Origin: Wickerhamiella versatilis
Lineage: Eukaryota
Reading direction: 5' to 3'
Length of the DNA stretch: 33,932 nucleotides
Assembly (NCBI GenBank): GCA_030867685.1
Contig: JAQOWU010000002.1
Location: 1-33,932, forward strand
Shown: positions 2,121 through 33,226 of the stretch, piece by piece
Layout: each line of letters begins with the position of its first letter
Position numbering within the stretch: the stretch's first letter is position 1
Notes under the pieces: generated by a model
What the model was told of the DNA's origin: nothing
Seen by the model: the letters and a program-made list of their open reading frames with translations, nothing else
Database searches by the model: none
Translations under genes and position numbers: made by a program

Positions 2121-3723
2121 TAAATTAAAAAATATTATAAATTTACAAATCTGTCTTGTCAATATAATATTGCTCACGTTAATAAAATTAATCTTAGCCC
2201 ATTAAAATTGTGAAATTTTAATTAAATTTGGCTGAAAACGGTGAAGACTAAGTACTAAATGTAATATTAATATTACATTTTATTATATGTTAATACCGTG
2301 GTACTTCAAATAATAATTTAATAAATTATTATTGTGAACACTGTAACGACTTAAAATATTTTATAATATTTTAGACTTAATAGACATAAATAAAATAATT
2401 ATTCTATTTATGATATCTAGTTATGTAATAAGGCCAATATCTTATAAATTAATTAATTAATAAAAAAAATAAATATATATATTAAAAAGGTAAATCATAA
2501 AGAAATGATTAAAAATAATAAAAATAAAATGAAAAACAATAATAATAAAATAAATTTAAATCCTTATTATATATCAGGATTAGTACAAAGTGATGGTAAT
2601 TTTAGTGTTAGAACTAATAAAAAAGATAATAATATTTGATTATTACCAGCATTTAATATAACATTACATAAAAAGAATGAAGAATTAATAATAAATATTA
2701 AAAATTATTTTAATGTTGGACATTATCGTATAGATAATAAAGGTTATTGTAGATATAATGTAACAGATTTAAAAGATTTAAATAATATTATTATACCATT
2801 CTTTTTAAAATATCAATTAAAAAGTGAAAAATTTAATAGTTTTATTATGTTTAAAATTATATGTAATAAATTAAATAATAAAGAACATTTAAATTTAATT
2901 AAAAATAAGAATATTAAATATAATAAATTAATTAAGGATAATAATCCTAATTTAATATTTACTAGTAAATTTAAAGGATCATTAAGTAATATAAGGTTTA
3001 ATATTATTAAATTATATTTAATAAATTTAGCTTATAATATTAATCCATTATCAAATAATCGTAAATTAAAATCAAGAGAAAATTTATTAAAATTTTTAAA
3101 TAAAGATGAACGTTTAATAGTATTATCTAAAGATTTAAATTATGAATTATTAATTAAACAAGAAATTATTAAATATAAAAATAATGATAAGATTAATATT
3201 GATTTTATTAAAGGATTAATAGATGGTGATGGTAGTATAACTACATATATTACTAATGAATTATCATTAAGAGTAGATTTTTCAATAACTCAAGATATAC
3301 ATAATATTTCATTATTATATGAAATTAAAGAATTTTTTAATAATGTAGGTAATATATCAGATTTAAAATGTAATGCATTTAGATATGATATAAGAAGTAG
3401 ATATGATATTCTTAATGAATTTATACCTAAATTTAATAATAATTATTCAAATGGTATAAATAATAATGTAAGATTATTTAAAATAAAATATATGATTAAA
3501 TTATTAGAATTTATTAATAATAATAATTCTTCAATAATTAAAAATAAAGAACAATTAATTAAAGTATCTAAATTAATGTATTGAATATTTAATAATGTTA
3601 ATAATTTAACATTAAATCAATATATTAATTTTATGTTAAATAAATTTAAAAATAAAATTAATTAATTTAATTTATAAGATAAAGCTATAGTCTAAGTAAT
3701 ATCGAAAGATATTTTGAAACTTA
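2121..3723 (+). mobile_element. Group I intron at E. coli-equivalent L2584 with a LAGLIDADG ORF
   Basis: Interrupts GCTGGGT^TAAGAACGTC. IGS TCTTAGCCCA at 2192-2201. Core motifs TAACGACT and CTATAGTC. Boundaries were set by the IGS pairing. Confidence 0.85.
2505..3665 (+). CDS. Double-motif LAGLIDADG homing endonuclease, free-standing in the rnl intron (about 386 aa)
   Basis: With TGA=Trp the frame runs ATG2505 to TAA3665. Motifs YISGLVQSDG and FIKGLIDGDG. Confidence 0.9.
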
Positions 3724-4083
3724 TAAGAACGTCGACAAGACAGTTCGGATAATATCTGCCACTAATTACTGAAAAAGGTAACCTCTCATTTAGTACGAAA
3801 GGATTAATGAGACATTATCACTGATGAATTTTTGATATCATAAAAATATTATATTTTTATGTTGTGAAAATTAGTTAAATAATGAAATTTTTAAGAAATA
3901 CTTATAGCATATCAAGTATGAAATAGTTTATCTTATTCAGTTTAAAAACTTATTAGATTAATAAGTATAAATAAATATATTAAATATATTTATTATTATA
4001 TTCGGTTAATTATTTAAATTAATAAATTAATTTCGAATTATTTTCTTATTTTATTATCTCTTATTTTATTATTAATATTATAA

Positions 4084-4155
4084 GCTGATTTAGCTTAATT
4101 GGTAAAGCAATCGTTTTGTAATCGATAGTTAGTGATTCGAGTTCACTACTCAGCA
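4084..4155 (+). tRNA. trnT: tRNA-Thr(UGU)
   Basis: Cloverleaf, anticodon loop TT-TGT-AA. Confidence 0.9.
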
Positions 4156-4225
4156 TTGCATTATAAATAATACTAAGTAATATAAATATACTCAGCATCA
4201 TTAATTAATTTATATTAAAAAATAA

Positions 4226-4313
4226 GAACATATGACTGAGTGGTTTAAGGTGGAACACTTGAGTTGTTTTATTCCATATTTTGGAATCACAAGTTCGAAT
4301 CTTGTTATGTTCG
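4226..4313 (+). tRNA. trnS: tRNA-Ser(UGA)
   Basis: Cloverleaf with long variable arm, loop CT-TGA-GT. Confidence 0.92.
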
Positions 4314-4335
4314 ATTTATAAATAATATATATATA

Positions 4336-4561
4336 TTATATTTATATAATAAAGTCATTAATTATAATATTCATATATTATTACAGAAAATATAATACAT
4401 TAAATATATATATTTAATGTATATTGAAATAAAAAAATATATATTATTAATTATAATAATTAATAATATAATAAAATATTATATATATAAGAATTATATA
4501 TTATATATTATATAGTTTTTAGAGGTAAAATTTATATAAAATAATGCTTATTTAAATATAA
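4336..4561 (+). ncRNA. rnpB: Probable RNase P RNA
   Basis: P4 halves AAAGTCA (4351) and ATAAAATAATGCTTAT (about 4536-4551). Internal ACAGAAA (4383) and TGAAA (about 4425) motifs. Terminal P1 TTATATTTA/TAAATATAA. Lies between tRNA genes. Confidence 0.7.
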
Positions 4562-4589
4562 TTAAATATATATTATTTATAATTATATA

Positions 4590-4663
4590 CTGATTGTAGT
4601 AGAATTGGTATATACATTAAATTTAGGATTTAAATTTTATGGGTTCAAATCCCATCAATCAGA
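4590..4663 (+). tRNA. trnL: tRNA with UAG anticodon, probably Leu, short variable loop
   Basis: Acceptor CTGATTG/CAATCAG, discriminator A, 7-nt loop TT-TAG-GA. Confidence 0.8.
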
Positions 4664-4725
4664 TAAGATAATCAAATTAATCAAATGATATGATTTTTTT
4701 TTATATAAAATAATTAATAAACTAA

Positions 4726-4796
4726 GCACTCATAGTTTAATGGTAAAACATTAATCCACGAAATTAATGATATAAGTTCAACTCTTATTGGGTGTG
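4726..4796 (+). tRNA. trnR: tRNA-Arg(ACG)
   Basis: Cloverleaf, loop CC-ACG-AA. Confidence 0.88.
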
Positions 4797-4817
4797 ATTA
4801 TTTTATTTAATTAAGAT

Positions 4818-4889
4818 AAGAGTATAGTATAACGGTTATTATTTGCGACTTCAAATCGTGAGATAGGGGTTCAATTCCTCTTGCTCTTG
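4818..4889 (+). tRNA. trnW: tRNA-Trp(UCA)
   Basis: Loop CT-TCA-AA, consistent with TGA=Trp. Confidence 0.92.
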
Positions 4890-4970
4890 TTAATAATATT
4901 TATATAAATAAATATTATTATATAAAGTAAAGTTTAAAAGTAAATAATAATAATAATTAAATAAATTTAT

Positions 4971-5041
4971 GATCTTATAGTTAAATGGTATAACGTTAGA
5001 TCTTCATTCTAAAAGTGTAGGTTCAATTCCTACTAAGATTA
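4971..5041 (+). tRNA. trnE: tRNA-Glu(UUC)
   Basis: Cloverleaf, loop TC-TTC-AT. Confidence 0.9.
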
Positions 5042-5051
5042 TAAATTATAT

Positions 5052-5124
5052 CGCAATATAGTGTAATTGGTAAACATATAAGATTCATGATCTTATGCTA
5101 CAAGTTCAAATCTTGTTATTGCAA
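5052..5124 (+). tRNA. trnM: tRNA-fMet(CAU), initiator
   Basis: CAT anticodon, C1-A72 mismatch, resembles the yeast mitochondrial initiator (GCAATA...TATTGC). Confidence 0.88.
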
Positions 5125-5148
5125 TTAAAATTTAAATTAAAATTAAAT

Positions 5149-5220
5149 AGAATGATAGCTTAACGGTTAAAGCCAACCACTCATAATGGTTTGATCAGAG
5201 TTCGATTCTCTGTCGTTCTA
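5149..5220 (+). tRNA. tRNA(CAU), probably Ile (AUA-reading), otherwise Met
   Basis: Loop CT-CAT-AA. It is the third CAU tRNA besides the initiator-like and elongator-like ones, and ATA is used at Ile positions. Confidence 0.8.
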
Positions 5221-5283
5221 TAAAACCTCATATTAACATTTAATATTAAATAAATTAATATAAATATTTAATAAATATTAACT

Positions 5284-5341
5284 ACGACGAGGGAATCAAG
5301 AACTCAATACTAAAGTATTAGTTCGATTCTCTGTCGTTCTA
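5284..5341 (+). repeat. Fold-back unit derived from the tRNA(CAU) 3' end
   Basis: AGTTCGATTCTCTGTCGTTCTA is duplicated and preceded by ACGACGAGGGAATCAAGAACT. Confidence 0.9.
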
Positions 5342-5353
5342 TCTATTAATTAA

Positions 5354-5362
5354 ATATAAGTA
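5354..5362 (+). promoter_or_regulatory. Promoter ATATAAGTA upstream of trnL-Q-K-P-V
   Basis: Exact consensus match. Confidence 0.55.
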
Positions 5363-5399
5363 GTAATTATTATAATATATATATGCATAATTATTATAA

Positions 5400-5481
5400 A
5401 TCAATCTGGTGAAATTGGTAGACACGTTATAGTTAAGTTATAATGCTTTTATGCATGAAGGTTCAAATCCTTCGATTGATA
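5400..5481 (+). tRNA. trnL: tRNA-Leu(UAA)
   Basis: Loop GT-TAA-GT, long variable arm. Confidence 0.92.
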
Positions 5482-5587
5482 TTTTTTTAATTATAAAATA
5501 AATAGATATATAATTTATCTATATATATTTTTTATCTTATATTATTCTTTTTTAATAAATATTGGACTATAATCCAATATTACATAT

Positions 5588-5662
5588 TAGATTGTAGACT
5601 AATTTGGCAAGTCAGTTTAAATTTGAGTTAAGATGATGTAAGTTCGAACCTTACCAATCTAA
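5588..5662 (+). tRNA. trnQ: tRNA-Gln(UUG)
   Basis: Acceptor TAGATTG/CAATCTA, loop AT-TTG-AG. Confidence 0.85.
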
Positions 5663-5724
5663 AATATATAATCTAATATAAATAAATAAATATTTATATA
5701 ATATATAAAAGGATTTATATATAG

Positions 5725-5796
5725 GAGTATATAGTTTAACGGTTAGAACATCTACCTTTTAAGTAGATTATATGAGTTCAATTCTCATTATACTCA
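5725..5796 (+). tRNA. trnK: tRNA-Lys(UUU)
   Basis: Loop CT-TTT-AA. Confidence 0.92.
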
Positions 5797-5859
5797 ATAT
5801 TCCTTTCTTAGGGAAATATTCTTTAATATAGTAATATTAACTAATAATAGATATTAATT

Positions 5860-6013
5860 AGTATAATGGAGAATGAACTTACCCTTGGGTCGTTCAATTC
5901 TCATTATACTCAATAAAAGAAACAATAAATAATAATTATTATAATAGTAATATTATTTATTTCAAATAACTAGTATAATGGAGAATTAACTTAATTCAAT
6001 TTTCATTATATTA
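5860..6013 (+). repeat. Two tRNA-Lys-derived fold-back units (5860-5912, 5972-6013)
   Basis: GTTCAATTCTCATTATACTCA is identical to the trnK 3' end and is preceded by its near reverse complement. Confidence 0.9.
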
Positions 6014-6041
6014 TAATTATTAATAATTTATAAATATAAAT

Positions 6042-6113
6042 CAGACATAGGTTAAATGGTGAGACGCTGATATTGGGCATCAGAGATAGTTAGTTCGATT
6101 CTAGCATGTCTGA
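6042..6113 (+). tRNA. trnP: tRNA-Pro(UGG)
   Basis: Loop AT-TGG-GC. Confidence 0.9.
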
Positions 6114-6134
6114 ATATTATTTTATAATATAAAA

Positions 6135-6207
6135 AAGGTATTAGTTTAATGGTTAAAACGTCTATTTTACACATAGAAGAGTAATAGTTCAATTCTATTA
6201 TACCTTA
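6135..6207 (+). tRNA. trnV: tRNA-Val(UAC)
   Basis: Loop TT-TAC-AC. Confidence 0.92.
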
Positions 6208-6271
6208 GTCAAAAACACTATATATAATTATTATTAATATAATATTAAATATTATATTATGATTAATCACT

Positions 6272-6774
6272 AGGTATAATGGAATTATGAACCCCTTTTA
6301 GGAGTTCAATTCTACAATTAATAATTTTATTATTAATTGTAATATCATTTAATAAAATTAAATGATATAGTATACCTTATAAATTATTATAGATTATTCA
6401 ATTATATTAACGGTATAATGATGAATTGAACTAATCCTTGGATAGTTCAATTCTACATTTAATAATTTTATTATTAAATGTAATATCATTCAATATTATT
6501 GAATGATATAGTATACCTTATCCAACAAACATTATATTAATAATATTATTAATATAGTAATATATTGATTATAAGTTATATATTCTAGGTATAATGGAAT
6601 TAAACCTCTATGAAGTTCAATTCTACAATTAATAATTTTATTATTAATTGTAATATCATTTAATAAAATTAAATGATATAGTATACCTTATAATTATTTA
6701 TACATTATTTAACCATATTAATGGTATAATAATGAATTGAACTCACCTTTGGTCGTTCAATTCAGTATATCTTA
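6272..6774 (+). repeat. Array of four tRNA-Val-derived fold-back units (6272-6379, 6412-6520, 6587-6690, 6723-6774)
   Basis: Each unit starts GGTATAAT, contains GTTCAATTC and ends TATACCTTA (TATATCTTA in unit 4), like the trnV 3' end. Confidence 0.9.
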
Positions 6775-6844
6775 GTAAAAATACTATATATAATAATTGT
6801 ATAACACAAATGTTAACGTTACTTATATAATACAATTAAGTAAT

Positions 6845-6932
6845 TGAATATGACAGGAATTGAACCTATATAGCAAATATATGCTACTAAGACTACAGCT
6901 TAGCTAGTAATACCAATATACTAAACATATCC
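6845..6932 (-). tRNA. trnY: tRNA-Tyr(GUA)
   Basis: Loop CT-GTA-GT, long variable arm. Confidence 0.9.
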
Positions 6933-7134
6933 ATAAATTATAATAATTTAATATATACCTCTTAGTTCACTATATTTAAACTTTGGATAGTGAAATATAT
7001 TACTTTTATAAATTATATATATAATATATATTATATATATTGTAAAATAAACTACTAATAAGAATTAATTTAATTAAAATTAAGTTAATGATTATTATTA
7101 ATTATATAATAATCAACTAATTAAATTGATTAAA

Positions 7135-7884
7135 TTATTGTTCATTTAATCAATCTAAGAATGCTGGTAATGAAACAGCATCAATAGCTATAGGCATTTC
7201 ACTATGAGCTACTCCACATAATTCACTACATTGACCATAGAATCTACCTTCACGTTGGATAATAGTACTAGCTTGTAATAATCTACCTGGTGTAGCATCT
7301 AATTTTATACCTAATGCAGGTACTGCAAAACTATGTACAACATCACCACCTGTAACAATAAATCTAATATGAGTATCAACAGGTAATACTACTCTAGTAT
7401 CAACATCTAATAAACGTAATTGTCCAAATTCTAACATATCATCAGGTATTACATATGAATCAAAACTAATAGTTTCACCACTATCATTTATAAAATCTGA
7501 ATATTCATATGATCAATATCATTGATATCCTATACATTTAACTGTCATAGCTGGATCTATAACATCATCACTTAAATATAATAATATAAATGATGGGAAT
7601 GCTATTAATGTTAATATAACAATAGGGAATAATGTTCATACAAATTCTAATAATGATCCATGTACTAAATATTTATAACTCATTTTATTATTATTAAATG
7701 TTCTTAATAATGTTATTAATAAATAAAATACTAAACATAATATTAATATTATATAAAACATAATTGTATCATGTATTTCTGTTATACCTTCAGCTATTGG
7801 TGATGCTGAATCTTGTAAATATAAACCTCAAGCTTTAGGTACATCATTATTTACTATAAAATTTAAATTTAATAAATTTAACAT
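7135..7884 (-). CDS. cox2: Cytochrome c oxidase subunit 2 (249 aa)
   Basis: MLNLL...NDVPKAWGLYLQD, GYQWYWSYEY, CuA motif [12 protein letters not shown]. Confidence 0.97.
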
Positions 7885-8118
7885 ATTTATTCTTTTTTTT
7901 TATTTCTTGAAATATTTTAATATATTTCCCTTATATAATTTTTAATTAATTTACGAACTCAATAATTTATTATTATTATTGTTTATCGTTATATATATAT
8001 ATTATTATAAATTAAATTATTTACATTAATTATTATAATTTATTAATTATTAAAAAGTATATTGTAAAATTAAATATTATTTTTATATTATTATTTTTAT
8101 ATAATTATTAAAAAATAA

Positions 8119-8382
<264 letters not shown>

Positions 8383-8398
8383 TTATTATTTTTAATAT

Positions 8399-8407
8399 TA
8401 CTTATAT
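8399..8407 (-). promoter_or_regulatory. Promoter ATATAAGTA upstream of atp9-cox2
   Basis: Exact consensus match 50 nt before the atp9 ATG. Confidence 0.7.
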
Positions 8408-8424
8408 ATTTTATATTATATTAA

Positions 8425-9420
8425 TTAAAAATGACATAAAGAAACATTAATATTATATTTACCATTTTTATTAATAATATATGATTGTGATTTAGTTAAA
8501 TTAGCTGAATAATTATTTAATTTAAAATTTCTAATAGGATTATAATTTTTTAAAATTAAAGGATTAATATTTAATTTACCATTATTATTATAATATCTTA
8601 ATGCTCTAGCATTACTTTCTGAATTATAATTTTTACCTCTAAATTTTCAATCATATCCAATAATATATTTATATAATAAATTATTATTAATAATTAAATC
8701 TTTATTATAAAAATATAATGGTTTTTCATTAATATAATATTTATTATGATTATTATTTGATAATAAATAATCTATTTTATTCATTATTGATATTGTATTT
8801 AATTTATCTGATATAAAATAATTTAATCATGGTGTACTATTATTATTAACTTTAATATTATTTATTTTATCAAATTTAGGATATTTAGATATAAATTTAC
8901 TTAATGATTTACTATAAATATTACTATCTAAATAATCATATTTTAATATTATTGGTTTAATTTCTAAATTTATATCATTTATTTTATTTATTTTTAATAT
9001 ATTATCTATAATTTTAGATATAAATATATTATTATATTTATTTAATGGATTATATATAAATAATATTATTTTTATAGTATTATTATTAAATAATAATATA
9101 GGTTCTCTATATAATATATTTATATATTTATTATTATTAGTATTAGGTAATTTAATAATTTGATTTAATATATAACTTATATATCTATTTATTAAATGTT
9201 TATTATTTAATTTATTTAATAAATTATTATTATTAAAATTATATATTATTTGTGAATAATCTCATTTATTATTATAATTATTTAATGATAATTTATTAAA
9301 ATTATTATTATTATTATTTAATAATCTCATTTCATTTATTTTATTATTATTTAAATGTTTAATTAATTTATATATTATATTATTAATATATATCTTTCTA
9401 ATATTATTATTAATTTTCAT
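8425..9420 (-). CDS. rps3: Ribosomal protein S3/Var1 (331 aa)
   Basis: Asn/Ile/Lys-rich frame ATG9420 to TAA8425 with NKWDYSQIIYNFN, LYKYIIGYDWKFRGK and a C-terminal INKNGKYNINVSLCHF typical of Var1. Confidence 0.9.
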
Positions 9421-9543
9421 CTAATTAATTTTATTTAATTATTCTTATTGTCTATATATTATATAAATATTATATTTATATAATCTTTTTTTTTACTCTA
9501 TAAATTATTATTTAATATAAATTTATTATATTAAATATTTGGT

Positions 9544-9616
9544 TATTTAGAGCAGGGATTGAACCTACATTGATTACATATGAGGTAACTGTTTTAACCA
9601 ATTAAACTATCTAAAC
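9544..9616 (-). tRNA. trnM: tRNA-Met(CAU), elongator-like
   Basis: Loop CT-CAT-AT, resembles yeast mitochondrial elongator Met. Confidence 0.88.
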
Positions 9617-14347: not shown

Positions 14348-18506
<4,159 letters not shown>

Positions 18507-23503: not shown

Positions 23504-26500
23504 TTAACGTTTTATAGCTAAATAGAATAAAACATTTTCTAATATTGAAACTGCTGGTAATAATACAATAAAGTAACCAAAATAGAAGTAAGTACATAAG
23601 CTACCTACTGTAATAAATGGTGGTTCAATATGTACAGCACCTAAAACAGCTAATAATAAGAAATTAACTACAAAGAATCCAAATAATAATTTAGATAATA
23701 CTTTAAATGCATTACCTCTAATTATAGAGAAATCTACAAAAGGTAATAATAATAATACTAATATAGAAGCTAACATAGCTAATACACCTAATATTTTTGA
23801 TTCAATATATCTTAATATAGCATAGAATGGTAATAAATAGAACTCTGGTACTCAATTTATATTAATCAAAATGTTTCCATTTTGTTTAGACTATGTCATA
23901 TAAATAATAAATTTAATTATTATTTATAAGGGCACTTCACCTAATTAAATTATTAATTAGATTACGAGATATTATTATTGGTATTAATTCAATCTCTAGT
24001 CGTTGAACGTTTTTATATCATTATTATATATATATTAATTATATAATAAATTTAATCTATTATAATAAATTAAATATACCGATATAAACTTCGCTGCAAG
24101 TTATCATAGTTTAATTAATAATTAATTAAACCTTAGATTTTCTTGTCAATTCACCCTTTTTTCATATTATATATTATATAATATGCCACATTATTAATTA
24201 TATGGCAGCAGGAGTTACTAAAGGATTACCAGGTATATTATTTTCAGGATCACCTAAATATTCTGGATAATAACTAATTAAGAAGAAGTATATAAATAAG
24301 AATGCAAATATTGTTATTGTATCTTTAAATAAATAATAAGGATGCATTGGTATTCTATCAATATTAGCTGTTATACCTAATGGATTATTACTTCCATGTG
24401 TATGTAATGCTAATATATGCATACAACTTACAGCAGCAATTATAAATGGTAATAAATAATGTAAACTGAAGAAACGTTGTATTGTAGGATTAGATACTGA
24501 TGATCCTCCTCATATAACAATTATATTATCAAAGAATTCATTTAAAATTCTTTATCAAAATGTTTCCATTTTGTTTAGACTATGTCATCAACCAATAATA
24601 AAATAATTTATTTTATTATTAATTGTTGGGCACTCGTGTCAAGATTATTGTTGATACTACTCACTTGTTAGTCGTTGAACATTCTTATTACAAAAATTAA
24701 ATAATTATTTAATTTTATATCGTAATAAGCTTTGCTGCAAATTATCATAATTAAATAATTAATTATTTAATCTTAGATTTTCTTGCAATTCACCCAATTA
24801 TTTCAATAATTATCATATTTATTTAATATTAATAAATATTTTAATTAAAGGAGCTCTTTAATTTGAGGATTTAATTAAATTAAATTGAACTCTGCTAATG
24901 GTTTACCTAAATATGGTATTGTAGTTACTAAATTTGTAATAACTGTTGCCTATTAATAAAAGTCCTTAATATTTAATTATTAAAAATAGGAATATAATTA
25001 AAATTATATCATTAGGATTTTTAATTAAATATAAGTTTAGTTTTTAATTAAACTAAATAATTTATCCAAAAATAATAATTATTATTATTTTTAAATTATA
25101 TTAAATTTAATATTTAATATAATCTGGTAAAATAAATTATACCATGTACCAAATATATGTATTAATATATATTATAAAATTTGGCCTTGTGAATATATTA
25201 TATATAAATCCATAAATTTATATAATATATCTTTATTTCGAGTGCACATTAAACATCATTTCAGACATCCATTATTGATCCACTCTGTCGGGATAATATA
25301 ATTTACCCACGGCTCTCATTATTTACCAAATAATTTTGACCAGTTTTCAATAATGTTGCATTATAAATATCAAATATATATAGATATTATATTTGTTAAT
25401 TTATTTTTAATTATATATTGCATAAATTAATTATTTATAATACTATATAATATTATTAATATTAAAAATTAGGATTTAATTTAGTAATTAATTTATATTT
25501 CATTGAAGGATGAATATAAGGTTTTACTATATTTATTAAATTACTCATAGAATTAGTATTAAAATATAAATTATATTGGTTTTTATATCCAGATTTAATA
25601 ATTGAAACATCTAAATTATATTTATTTTTTAATATATTTATTAATATTAAATGTTCATTATAATTAAAATTATTAGATGCTATTTTTAATCCATTATTTA
25701 ATTTACCTCCATCATCCATAATTCATATAGCTAATGCTAATGGAGTTAAATATATATCAATATCATTAGGTAAAATCTTTTTTTTATTAATATATCATTT
25801 ATCATAAATTGGATTAAATATATCATAAGTTCAAGTTGAAAATCTTATTATTTTTCTTAATTTTCCTTTATTACCTAAACGTGTTTGTATTTTAGGTATA
25901 TTAGAATTACAATAACCTAAATTACTAATTAATTTATGTAAATATAATAGATAATCTTCATGACTACCTTCTTGATAAAATGAAAATCTTGTACCTGTTC
26001 CATTTTTACGTTTTTCACCATGACAATCACCTAATAATGATCCATAAATTATTGATAATAAATCAATATGTAATGGTCCAAAATTTAATAATTCATTTTT
26101 ATTAATACGTTTATTTTTTATTTTATTTTTATTTAATTCTAAATTTAATAATATTAATAATATTACATTTGAGGCGCACAATTCACCTCAGTGTGACATT
26201 TGCCCATAAACAAGACAATACTAATTTTTATATTAAATAAATATAATTATTTATTTAATTTTCGACTGTGCATTAAACATCATTTCAGATATCCATTAGT
26301 GTTCCAGTCTGTCGCGATTATTTATGTAACCGACGATCTTGTTAATAATTTAATAATTATTAATTTTAATCGTTTTCACTAATGTTGCCATCATATAAAT
26401 TTAATTTATATGATAATAATATATAAAATATTATTTATCAATCCATAATTATTTCTCATAAAAGTTATCTAATTATAGTATATTATATATAATAATATAA

Positions 26501-28003
26501 TGATAGACTATCAAATTATAAATATTTATTAAATTAAATAATAAATTATATTCTATAAATATTTTATTTATTATATGAAATAATAAATTTAGTTTTATCT
26601 TTAGTTAATAATAAACCAGATTTTAATGGTTTAATCATTTTAATCTTAATATTAGATATATCTTTAACAGAATTATATTCTAATATATTATTATTATTTA
26701 GATATTCTATAAATAATTTAGGTATATAAATATAACCTTTATTAATTGATCTTTTAATAGTTTTAGTACTACAACATAAATAATTAGCTGCTTTACTAAT
26801 ACTATAAAATTCACATATATATTTATTATTTTCATCAAATAAATATATAGGTTTACCAAATAATTTAGCTATTTTAATTCTACCAGCTCTTGAAATATAA
26901 TCTTTACTACGATTAAGAGCTATTTCTCTTAATTTATGTTTAGATTCTTCACTTCATTTACCCTTACGATTAATTTGTAATTGTCTTAATAATTCACGTC
27001 TTTCATCTGTAAAAGCTATTTTCATTTTATTTAAACTTTCTTCATTATGCTTATAACCTAATGTATTACCTGCTTCAGGTACTATATTATATTTAGGCAT
27101 TAATAAACTAATATAAGATGTTTCTAAATTTAATAATTCTTGATTAATTTTTTTATCATATTTATTATTATATTCATGATTATTTATATATTCTAATATA
27201 CCAAAAATAAAATTATTTAATCCATATTTTTTAATAGATCTAGCTACTAATTTATTACCATTTAAATGATATAAATGATTACTAAATCTTGTATATAATC
27301 TATTATATATTGCTGAACCTATATAATAATTTTTAGTTATTTTATTAATTATAATATATATTCCTGATTTATTTCTTAATTTTTCACGAATTTCTACTCT
27401 AACTGGTTCTTTATCAACATTATCTCATCAATTTTCTATATTAACTTTACCTAATATATCATTAATTATTTGTTGAGAATCAGTTAAATCTTGAGGTTTA
27501 TTATTATTATTTTTTAATAAAAATGAAGATGATGAAAATAATCTTTTATTTAATAATTTATTATTTAATTTAATATATTTATAATTTGATTTTGGGCTAT
27601 TGTTTTGTTTACCCATAAATGCAGTAATTATCATTAATAAGAATATTACTACTCCTATTGTTCATAATGCTACTCTTGGTTTTCTATATGATCCATAATA
27701 TATACCTCTAGCCATATGTAAATATACAAATATAAAGAAGAATCCAGCTCCATTAGAATGTGCATATCTTATTAATCATCCATAATGCACATCAATCATA
27801 ATGTGTTGAACAGATAAGAATGCTAAATCTAAGTTAGAACTATAATGCATTGCTAAAAATATACCTGTAGCTAATTGTATTACTAAACATGTACCTAATA
27901 AACTACCAAAATTTCAGAAATAACTAATATTTGCTGGTTCTGGTGCATCTATAACAAAACTATTAGGTATTGATAAAAATTCATTAGATTTTCTTAATGC
28001 CAT
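23504..28003 (-). CDS. cob: Apocytochrome b (384 aa); exons 28003-27611, 26220-26185, 24949-24889, 24517-24202, 23852-23504
   Basis: [18 protein letters not shown]^[12 protein letters not shown]^[28 protein letters not shown]. Exons sum to 1155 nt. Confidence 0.97.
23853..24201 (-). mobile_element. Group I intron cob-806 (IA-like), no ORF
   Basis: Interrupts GCC AT^A GTA CCA and ends in G. IGS GTGGCA pairs with exon TGCCAT. Confidence 0.9.
24518..24888 (-). mobile_element. Group I intron cob-490 (IA-like), no ORF
   Basis: Interrupts GAG T^TT ATA TGA and ends in G. Core TCAACGACTA and GACATAGTC. Confidence 0.9.
24950..26184 (-). mobile_element. Group I intron cob-429 (ID-like, bI2 position)
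   Basis: Interrupts TGA GGT^GCA ACA and ends in G. Core near 25240-25360. Confidence 0.92.
25462..26184 (-). CDS. LAGLIDADG (type 2, bI2-like) maturase/endonuclease, in frame with cob exon 2
   Basis: [10 protein letters not shown] and LAIWIMDDG motifs. Confidence 0.92.
26221..27610 (-). mobile_element. Group I intron cob-393 (ID-like)
   Basis: Follows GGT at CDS nt 393 and ends in G. Core near 26260-26390 (CGACAGACTGG). Confidence 0.92.
26564..27610 (-). CDS. GIY-YIG homing endonuclease, in frame with cob exon 1
   Basis: [20 protein letters not shown]...RF..H, followed by [21 protein letters not shown] and other NUMOD-like segments. Stop position read by eye. Confidence 0.9.
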
Positions 28004-30864: not shown

Positions 30865-31051
30865 ATCCTTAATTATAACATATCAAAGATATGTTATATT
30901 AGGATTTTTTTATTAAAAATAATCCTCAATTATAAAAAACATGAAATGTTTTTTATATTAGGATATAAAATATATTTTATATCCTCAATAATAAGAGATT
31001 AAAAATCTCTTATATTAGGATATTTACGAAGTAAATAATCCTCAATTATAA
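30865..31051 (-). repeat. Three and a half hairpin units bounded by trnR acceptor-stem sequence
   Basis: ATCCT(C/T)AAT...TATATTAGGAT at 30865-30905, 30922-30964, 30981-31021, partial at 31038-31051. Confidence 0.9.
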
Positions 31052-31195: not shown

Positions 31196-31263
31196 AGATA
31201 ATGATGAGAATTGAACTCATATCAATCGATTTGCAATCAATCTTATCAACCATGAGCATTATC
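31196..31263 (-). tRNA. trnC: tRNA-Cys(GCA), short with weak D arm
   Basis: Acceptor GATAATG/CATTATC, loop TT-GCA-AA. Confidence 0.85.
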
Positions 31264-33014: not shown

Positions 33015-33023
33015 TACTTATAT
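33015..33023 (-). promoter_or_regulatory. Nonanucleotide promoter ATATAAGTA upstream of trnG-nad4
   Basis: Exact match to the yeast mitochondrial promoter consensus, at the head of the minus-strand genes. Confidence 0.75.
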
Positions 33024-33217: not shown

Positions 33218-33226
33218 TTATAAGTA
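33218..33226 (+). promoter_or_regulatory. Promoter TTATAAGTA for rnl
   Basis: WTATAAGTA immediately before rnl. Confidence 0.75.

Follow-up and report, generated by a model that had tools for sequence, protein, structure and literature searches.

The DNA examined here is a 33,932-nucleotide stretch from Wickerhamiella versatilis (contig JAQOWU010000002.1 of assembly GCA_030867685.1, positions 1 to 33,932 of the forward strand), which we refer to as the window, and our subject is a tandem array of hairpins that lies in it between the tRNA genes trnV and trnY. The window is an A+T-rich mitochondrial genome of fungal type, with 18.6% G+C and TGA read as tryptophan. It carries rnl, rns, cox1-3, cob, atp6, nad1-6, intron endonuclease open reading frames (ORFs) and 25 tRNA genes; atp8, atp9 and nad4L were not located in the window. 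Since rnl leaves the window at its end and resumes at its start, the window is probably the whole circle. The + strand encodes rnl and 13 tRNA genes, the last of which is trnV, and the - strand encodes all genes from trnG (32977) down to cox2 and then trnY. The array occupies the 637-nt spacer between trnV and trnY, where the two transcription directions meet. A first-pass annotation, made from the letters of this DNA, had described it as a tandem array of cloverleaf-like tRNA-Val mimics placed where transcription converges. The placement was correct, trnV being the last + strand gene and trnY the last - strand gene. The analysis revealed, however, that the array is not a set of tRNA-like genes. 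Instead, its hairpins belong to a small lineage-specific family in which each member matches the tRNA that lies 62-69 nt upstream of it. The genes that border the array and the four units within it (V1 to V4, whose two types of core are described below) are as follows.

6135..6207, + strand: trnV(tac), final gene of the + strand unit (ARAGORN; Rfam tRNA model, 69.4 bits)
6272..6379, + strand: V1, type A core; -32.4 kcal/mol, z -6.4 as RNA and z -8.0 with DNA parameters
about 6411..6520, + strand: V2, type B core; -34.7 kcal/mol, z -7.4 as RNA (6413-6520 folded)
6587..6690, + strand: V3, type A core, decayed; -27.4 kcal/mol, z -6.1 as RNA
6723..6774, + strand: V4, type B core; -14.7 kcal/mol, z -4.3 as RNA
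6845..6932, - strand: trnY(gta), final gene of the - strand unit (ARAGORN)

Folding of the four units as RNA reproduced the outline given by the first-pass annotation, with z scores of -4.3 to -7.4. V1, V2 and V3 are each predicted to form a closing stem and three arms around a four-way junction, V4 forms the stem and arm 1 only, and the arms of the folded units are 9-13 bp long. None of 200 shuffles folded as stably as any of the units. For V3 the four-way fold was seen in the centroid only, as arm 1 was broken in the minimum-energy fold; in this arm, which has a 4-nt deletion and substitutions, pairing on the + strand is weak. The closing stem and arm 1, which had been taken for separate parts, turned out to be two stretches of one long imperfect palindrome composed of the trnV 3' end and its reverse complement. 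The 3' strand of this palindrome copies the trnV 3' end, with identity over 9-14 nt in the T-loop region and over the last 9 nt, the latter contributing in V1-V3 to a closing stem of 6-7 bp that is of the acceptor type and has the discriminator context. The 5' strand, rather than tracking the 5' half of trnV, follows its tail in reverse complement. Between the two strands lies a mini-hairpin of 10-13 nt, the sole G+C-containing part of the structure, with a stem of 3 bp. The remaining two arms have a different source. In V1-V3 a double perfect palindrome of 56 nt is inserted at the exact junction of the T-loop and acceptor letters, and V4 and trnV are without precisely those 56 nt at the same junction. 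Its two hairpins, hp2 and hp3, are directly adjacent, and a unit has either both or neither; they correspond to arms 2 and 3, which are perfect A+T palindromes of 12-13 bp with 3-nt loops and a single C-G pair per stem. The cloverleaf-like outline thus arises because the double palindrome sits inside a tRNA-tail palindrome.

6313..6368, no strand assigned: double perfect palindrome, 56 nt, V1 copy (hp2 6313-6341, hp3 6342-6368)
6454..6509: double palindrome, V2 copy (repeat search)
6624..6679: double palindrome, V3 copy (repeat search)

We then compared the units with genuine tRNAs, as the first-pass annotation had proposed that they might be processed, CCA-tailed and possibly charged tRNA-Val mimics. 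Of the 24 tRNAs that ARAGORN reported in the window, none lies within 6208-6844, 5222-5399 or 5797-6040. The Rfam tRNA model gave no match to the four units at E values up to 10 (region 5800-7200), and no match to the four units or to three further elements introduced below at E values up to 1 (region 3600-9600). In the predicted folds the units have no D arm, no anticodon arm with a 7-nt loop and no open T loop; the T-loop letters pair with their own reverse complement in arm 1. Of the tRNA features compared, the units possess the acceptor-type closing stem with its discriminator, which, together with the presence of the T-loop sequence, is what speaks for tRNA-like noncoding RNAs. Besides the missing arms, the paired T loop, the arm lengths and the lack of ARAGORN and Rfam matches, two observations speak against them, namely that some copies are decaying and that the palindromic design is explained by the reverse-complemented tail. 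We give such RNAs almost no credence. What stands of the earlier proposal is the derivation from trnV, attested by the shared T-loop region and last 9 nt, but by the measures of ARAGORN and Rfam the units are not tRNA-like.

The paired changes that had been noted in both palindromic arms of V2 were confirmed. Within the 56-nt double palindrome V2 differs from V1 at six positions, four in stems and two in a loop, and there is no one-sided stem change, as the four stem differences form two mirrored complementary pairs. By our own arithmetic, four random stem changes among 50 positions would yield such a pattern with a chance of roughly 1 in 10^4. Such a pattern looks like compensatory evolution. 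Template switching has been reported to create and maintain hairpins and thereby to mimic compensatory substitution (PMC8794818, in the portion of that article available to us). The first-pass annotation had itself named palindrome correction at the DNA level, should it fully explain the symmetric changes, together with a lack of stable or processed transcripts, as grounds for abandoning its proposal, and we find that such correction largely accounts for them.

The organization of the array as a whole carries the argument further. Its start is not at 6272, as first described, but at 6184 within the T loop of trnV, from where it runs to about 6800. It is composed of 2.2 tandem copies of a super-unit of 258-310 nt, in which the order is T loop, tail, a flank of about 64 nt, a type A hairpin, a 32-nt spacer and the left arm plus core of a type B hairpin.

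6184..6441, + strand: super-unit copy 1 (trnV T loop, tail, 64-nt flank, V1, 32-nt spacer, V2 left arm and core)
6442..6751, + strand: super-unit copy 2 (V2 T loop, double palindrome, tail, 66-nt flank copy, V3, 32-nt spacer, V4 left arm and core)
6752..6800 (end approximate), + strand: partial copy 3 (V4 T loop, diverged tail, copy of the trnV 3' flank of 22 nt at 91%)

Alignment showed that the T loop and 3' end of trnV are themselves the first copy of the tandem repeat. When alignments were begun from each T loop, the succession of T loop, tail and flank of about 64 nt was recovered three times, after trnV, after V2 and partly after V4. The suspected higher-order duplication of units 1-2 and 3-4 was upheld by a mean column identity of 93% over 178 columns between V1..V2 and V3..V4. 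The junctions of the super-units fall in the T-loop string, which is the pattern expected from unequal exchange or slippage between T-loop repeats. The double palindromes of V1 and V3 are identical at 56 of 56 positions, and outside them the units differ in about 13 of 122 columns.

The clean boundaries of the double palindrome also bring to mind active small mobile elements, in which the double palindrome, and perhaps the T-loop-flanked cores as well, would transpose or home to sites adjacent to T loops. Its exact presence in V1-V3 and absence from V4 and trnV at the same junction would fit such activity, as would its occurrence in hairpins of both type A and type B, whose positions in the super-unit are not equivalent. 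In addition, a perfect palindrome at 1864-1888 in the rnl region has the same 10-nt stem as hp2 of the array, and the same cores are found on different tRNA tails within and between species. However, all three full copies lie in one array, so that gene conversion explains them equally well, and no target-site duplication was found. Nor were there copies in 80 related mitochondrial loci, although the screen concerned was for T-loop palindromes and was not aimed at the double palindrome. We regard active mobility as quite improbable.

Hairpins of the same design were found after two further + strand tRNA genes of the window, trnM and trnK, the second of which has a decayed second copy. A search for the design on the - strand of the window found none.

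5283..5343, + strand: E_M, z -5.3; a core different from types A and B; 3' strand identical to the final 23 nt of trnM (5148-5221), 23/23 positions; starts 62 nt after trnM
5859..5913, + strand: E_K1, z -5.1; type B core; 3' strand identical to the final 21 nt of trnK, 21/21 positions; starts 63 nt after trnK
5971..6014, + strand: E_K2, z -4.1; decayed second copy in which the core mini-hairpin is lost

Relatives of the window were sought by a Cox2-based scan of metagenome contigs, from which 80 loci were kept, and only one of them, here called L001, was close, its cox2 having 87.7% nucleotide identity to that of the window; a scan of viral contigs for relatives found none. Behind the trnG of L001 lies another hairpin of this design, and its 3' strand is a 20/20 match to the final 20 nt of that gene. 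The two genomes differ by rearrangements that have tRNA genes as end points: trnY of L001 (1519-1605) is inverted relative to cox2 when compared with 6845-6932 of the window, and trnG lies directly upstream of cox2 in L001. A C/T-rich patch just after trnK (5797-5822), which forms a small hairpin in the window, resembles one just after trnG of L001 (254-266) at about 10 of 13 positions. Direct reading of the elements showed that their left arms match the reverse-complemented tail and not the 5' half of their own tRNA. We had considered that a unit might be a whole trnV copy with an internal deletion; this was ruled out by the left arms of E_M, E_K1 and the L001 element, which follow the reverse-complemented tail.

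We quantified the rarity of this design in three ways. A scan for the reverse-complemented tail within 260 nt downstream of 317 tRNAs from 81 sources ranked trnV of the window (score 13.5), trnK of the window (13.0) and trnG of L001 (11.0) at the top, against a background of 6.3 +/- 1.2 and a next best score of 9.5; a full direct tail copy (score 21) was obtained among the 317 only for trnM, trnK and L001 trnG. A second copy of the last 20 nt outside tRNA genes, allowing up to 2 mismatches, was present for 5 of 321 tRNAs in 81 sources, namely trnM and trnK of the window, trnG of L001 and trnN of two other, more distant mitochondrial loci, L046 and L048. The latter two are plain direct partial duplicates without a palindrome; these duplicates of the trnN 3' half with flank (5108-5160 in L046, about 5145-5164 in L048) lie about 680 nt upstream of trnN. 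Lastly, the pattern of T loop plus complement had 14 matches outside tRNA genes in 689 kb, of which eight were in the window (six elements, two of them matched on both strands), one was in L001 and five were elsewhere, the last five being without a tail copy by eye. The string GTTCAATTC occurs 14 times against 0.12 expected, with seven occurrences in tRNAs and seven in the elements.

The cores enclosed by these palindromes, apart from that of E_M, fall into two types. Type A cores are found in the hairpin after L001 trnG, in V1 and in V3, which is decayed, with 29/34 matches between V1 and L001, and type B cores are those of V2, V4 and E_K1, with 27-28 matches of 34-35 in pairwise comparison. 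One core type may therefore be joined to the tails of different tRNAs, with a left arm that in every case complements whichever tail is present. Conservation between species as a sign of constraint was considered and rejected, as the third codon positions of cox2 are 84% identical between the two genomes and 29/34 is about the neutral expectation; the core shared by V1 and L001 is accordingly attributed to common descent. Because V3 is a decayed V1, the resemblance between its core and the anticodon stem of trnV is best attributed to chance. Matches to a 17-nt core pattern elsewhere (1 viral contig and 28 contigs with prokaryote titles) were set aside, the viral one being G+C-rich and non-mitochondrial and the 28 being treated as chance. 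Alignment of the eight elements with MAFFT was too poor for the counting of pairs.

When both strands of the eight elements were folded, the + strand folded better in four and the - strand in four, and neither G-U pairs nor energies showed a strand bias. Folds of V1, V2, V4, E_K1 and E_M with DNA parameters gave z scores of -4.9 to -9.9. We also counted perfect hairpins, defined by a stem of at least 10 bp and a loop of 3-6 nt, with 20 block shuffles of the window as the control. The window contains 69, compared with 3-12 (mean 5.6) in the shuffles, an excess of about 12-fold genome-wide. Two of the perfect hairpins, at 233-257 and 30874-30898, have the loop CAAAG in common. Taken together, the equal folding of the strands, the excess of palindromes and the decaying copies (arm 1 of V3, and E_K2) point to processes at the DNA level.

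We therefore favor, with a probability of roughly 0.58, an account in which the array is a DNA-level product of T-loop-anchored unequal exchange and template-switch correction of palindromes, and acts at most as a hairpin barrier. The mechanism, which is drawn wholly from the anatomy of the elements, would run as follows. The T-loop string of 9-14 nt, the longest that the tRNA genes and the hairpins have in common, would serve as the anchor for slippage or unequal exchange and so amplify the unit. Exchange anchored there would automatically provide the right arm of a hairpin with the tail of the upstream tRNA, and sometimes with its flank too. Intrastrand template switching, or quasi-palindrome correction, would then make the left arm complementary and keep the palindromes perfect, yielding mirrored 'compensatory' changes in a single event. 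Short-patch exchange, anchored on the pair of inverted T-loop copies at either side of each core, would move cores between hairpins. Alternatively, an existing hairpin may be re-tailed, with its right arm replaced by unequal exchange with the upstream tRNA and its left arm subsequently brought into line by template-switch correction. A transcript of either strand would be expected to fold into a very stable cluster of hairpins, which might at most serve as a roadblock or as a protector of 3' ends, a weaker part of the proposal; as a roadblock it would operate where the + strand unit ends, and also against transcripts from an adjacent promoter-like motif on the - strand.

Several observations weigh against this account. 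The distance from the end of a tRNA to the start of its hairpin is 62, 63 and 64 nt in the window and 69 nt in L001 (64 nt if the arm were of full length), and the distances from T loop to T loop are 121, 116, 117 and 119 nt, yet the spacers of the M, K, V and G loci are not alignable beyond composition. Constant spacing with unalignable spacers is not predicted by neutral turnover. The tail copies become identical to the tRNA 0-3 nt ahead of GTTC and remain so until 0-3 nt beyond the discriminator. The copies in E_M, E_K1 and the L001 element stop at the discriminator, which is a boundary that exists at the RNA level. The occurrence of core types across tRNA tails needs extra steps in the model. 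The identity of the V1 and V3 double palindromes fits homogenisation, but it fits selection as well. Finally, the promoter-like motif on the - strand next to the array faces it without having a gene of its own, and its distance of 46 nt from V4 is within the 30-47 nt seen between such motifs and tRNA genes; the array may accordingly have a role in termination, in processing or as a replication origin. Functional readings are kept alive by the fixed spacing, by the tail copies that end at the discriminator and by the V1/V3 identity. In the most comprehensive of them, the hairpins would be a selected system templated by tRNA tails and held 62-64 nt behind the tRNA, used as punctuation for RNase Z and RNase P or, together with the gene-less - strand promoter, as a start of mitochondrial DNA replication. 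We consider this rather unlikely. One tetramer of a bacterial-type single-strand-binding protein wraps about 65 nt of DNA, and under selection the fixed spacer could possibly be a physical ruler for which such a tetramer is one candidate.

The promoter-like motif bears directly on these functional readings. An 8-mer that precedes rnl and trnG in their divergent region occurs 13 times in all, which is no enrichment over the 15.3 expected. Followed by A or G it is present in 11 copies, all of them intergenic, and 10 of the 11 are co-oriented with a gene 30-515 nt downstream; followed by T it is present in two copies, both inside genes. The 11 intergenic copies have the appearance of a genome-wide set of promoters, in which the - strand has many internal 'booster' sites. 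Yeast mitochondrial promoters are nonanucleotides of such a kind according to the portion of PMC4618339 at hand.

6820..6827, - strand: promoter-like motif, 17 nt past the 3' end of trnY, aimed into the array
33015..33022, - strand: promoter-like motif
33219..33226, + strand: promoter-like motif
5355 (5355-5362, + strand), 8399, 11439, 11982, 18737, 20918, 28203 and 30755: other promoter-like motifs

Downstream of the motif at 6820-6827, the region 6208-6819 contains no ORF of at least 46 aa and no match to an RNA family. In L001 the motif is present at 146-153, 29 nt before trnG, and there is none between the hairpin and cox2. A scan for sigma-70 promoters was uninformative (30 found against 30.4 expected).

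As far as its layout can tell, the arrangement of motif and array fits the role of a terminator or insulator, and it equally fits a layout of promoter plus palindromes such as that of a replication origin. As a bidirectional terminator or insulator under selection, the cluster would stop or destabilise read-through from the + strand into antisense trnY and cox2, and transcripts from the - strand motif into antisense trnV and trnP, with E_M acting likewise before the + strand promoter at 5355. The position of the array exactly between the last + strand gene and the last - strand gene is what this role would require, the 638-nt spacer 6208-6845 as a whole folds with a z score of -9.4, and E_M ends 11 nt ahead of the promoter-like motif. 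Candida albicans mitochondrial reads, moreover, stop at a hairpin between two units, as stated in the accessible part of PMC4618339. Other observations speak against this role. E_K1 and E_K2 lie between trnK and trnP, and the L001 element between trnG and cox2, with no exact promoter motif after them, and on the - strand all nine gene-preceding motifs lack such a hairpin ahead of them. The hairpins are not followed by a U-run, and a scan of 5000-7200 for terminator-like sites returned one site only, which is within a tRNA. We consider selected termination or insulation unlikely on balance.

For a replication origin, the gene-less - strand promoter would prime into the cruciform-prone array, or breaks at cruciforms would start recombination-driven replication. 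In favor of this are the fact that the sole promoter-like motif of 11 without a gene points into the array, the very stable folds with DNA parameters and the turn of the cumulative GC skew at about 5-7 kb. However, the turn coincides with the switch of the coding strand and so holds no separate information on an origin. The bare 8-mer is not enriched, G+C clusters of the Saccharomyces cerevisiae kind are absent, and the same hairpin family follows trnM, trnK and L001 trnG without a facing promoter. An origin at the array is thus very doubtful.

Another candidate role is in RNA processing. Here the hairpins would resemble t-elements, signals at which RNase Z, and perhaps RNase P, cut and so punctuate polycistronic RNA, for example at the 5' end of the cox2 mRNA in L001; the substrate would be an acceptor-like stem stacked on a T-stem-like stem with a genuine tRNA 3' strand at its end. 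E_M, E_K1 and the L001 element agree with this in three respects: their tail copies end at the discriminator, which is the RNase Z site, they form an uninterrupted helix of about 12 bp or more with acceptor and T-stem pairs, and they are located within transcription units. Plant mitochondrial t-elements, even 'acceptor-stem-like stem-loops', have been tied to ends made by RNase Z and RNase P (PMC1920247, in the part of the article available). Against such a role, t-elements are distinguished by a conserved T loop, which here is predicted to be paired, and in V1-V3 the 56-nt insert parts the T-loop letters from the acceptor strand, so that no minihelix geometry is left. Furthermore, processing offers no functional reason for a stem to copy the adjacent tRNA in particular, and both the equal folding of the strands and the lack of a tRNA model match are unfavorable. 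We hold that t-element-like processing is a slim prospect. A hidden mitochondrial RNase P RNA was also considered and rejected: a 9-nt motif known from general background had a single match, with one mismatch, elsewhere, and there was no Rfam match.

Some further features of the window were recorded. The closest named match of its Cox2 is that of Blastobotrys adeninivorans at 73%, and five further protein clusters, from contigs of up to 33 kb, are at 79-81% identity. The exact Cox2 protein occurs in a single assembly source. The organism is thus probably a yeast close to Dipodascales, with a mitogenome that has probably not been described before. Words of the window are shared by 20 sequencing runs from 12 studies, mostly food-fermentation metagenomes, with no RNA run among those listed; the fraction of sampled words is 0.77 in many runs and 0.91-0.92 in two, a difference that may reflect strain variation and is not counted as evidence. 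A possible trnC at 31196-31263 (- strand) was reported by Rfam only, at 31.3 bits, just over the gathering score, and was missed by ARAGORN; trnK has an identical T arm. Between trnM and cox2 lies an Asn-rich ORF of 331 aa (8425-9420, - strand) with no Pfam match, at the place expected for a gene of the rps3/var1 type. Among the intron ORFs, one with GIY-YIG and NUMOD1 domains is fused in frame to cob exon 1, and LAGLIDADG ORFs are present in cob, in rnl and in cox1, the last with two that are in frame with exons. The ORFs of this cob, cox1 and rnl set lie at 26564-28003, 25462-26199, 14872-18506 and 2505-3665.

A search of the literature found no description of this tRNA-tail hairpin design, and we therefore compared the array with known systems that have parts of it in common. 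Partial tRNA duplicates are alike in that a direct copy of the 3' part lies next to the parent gene, sometimes with flank, has a tandem period and decays. They differ in that here each copy is fused to its reverse complement, with a conserved mini-hairpin between the two; moreover, the start in the T loop, the usual end at the discriminator and the near-constant distance of 62-64 nt from the parent are absent from the L046 and L048 duplicates. The S. cerevisiae ori consists of a promoter plus a palindromic cluster, with three G+C clusters of which two form a palindrome. The array is like such ori/rep sequences in having a gene-less promoter-like motif, a predicted promoter, aimed into the element, and differs from them in that its sole G+C is the 3-bp mini-hairpin in arm 1. 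The double-hairpin elements of Allomyces are another comparable system. In Candida albicans mitochondria, hairpins and double-hairpin-like elements lie at the ends of units, and their authors propose roles as terminators or insulators (PMC4618339). As described in the available portion of that paper, those elements are also adjacent paired hairpins in intergenic positions at unit ends and near promoters, with recombination among the proposed roles. Theirs, however, are G+C-rich and dispersed, whereas here the stems are A+T and the three copies lie in one array inside a tRNA-tail palindrome.

Plant t-elements are likewise tRNA-derived, with a T-arm motif and an acceptor-like stem, and lie inside polycistronic transcripts (PMC1920247, same portion). 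They have a foldable T arm and mapped RNA ends, in contrast to the present elements, which are known from sequence and in which the T-loop string is present in all units yet is predicted to be paired and does not form a T arm. Were punctuation by RNase Z and RNase P to prove true, this would be the first t-element-like case in fungal mitochondria. Quasi-palindrome correction, in the available account of it (PMC8794818), similarly makes and keeps perfect hairpins and produces mirrored double changes in one event, and it fits the two mirrored pair changes of V2 and the 12-fold excess of palindromes. It is, however, a mutational process and not a family of elements, and alone it leaves the fixed spacing and the tail specificity unexplained.

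What is unusual for mitochondrial genomes is the combination of tail-matched hairpins, cores common to different tRNAs and species, and a gene-less promoter-like motif that faces them. To our knowledge, transcript punctuation and the start of replication are poorly mapped in complex-I-bearing yeasts, and if spacing and tail matching are selected, the hairpins would offer a testable handle on them. The comparison also carries a caution, as a convincing 'cloverleaf with covariation' can arise without RNA function from a tRNA 3' end, its reverse complement and a double palindrome, and the mirrored changes left by template switching can pass for compensatory evolution. Of the systems considered, the array works most like tRNA fragments derived by tandem duplication and shaped by quasi-palindrome correction.

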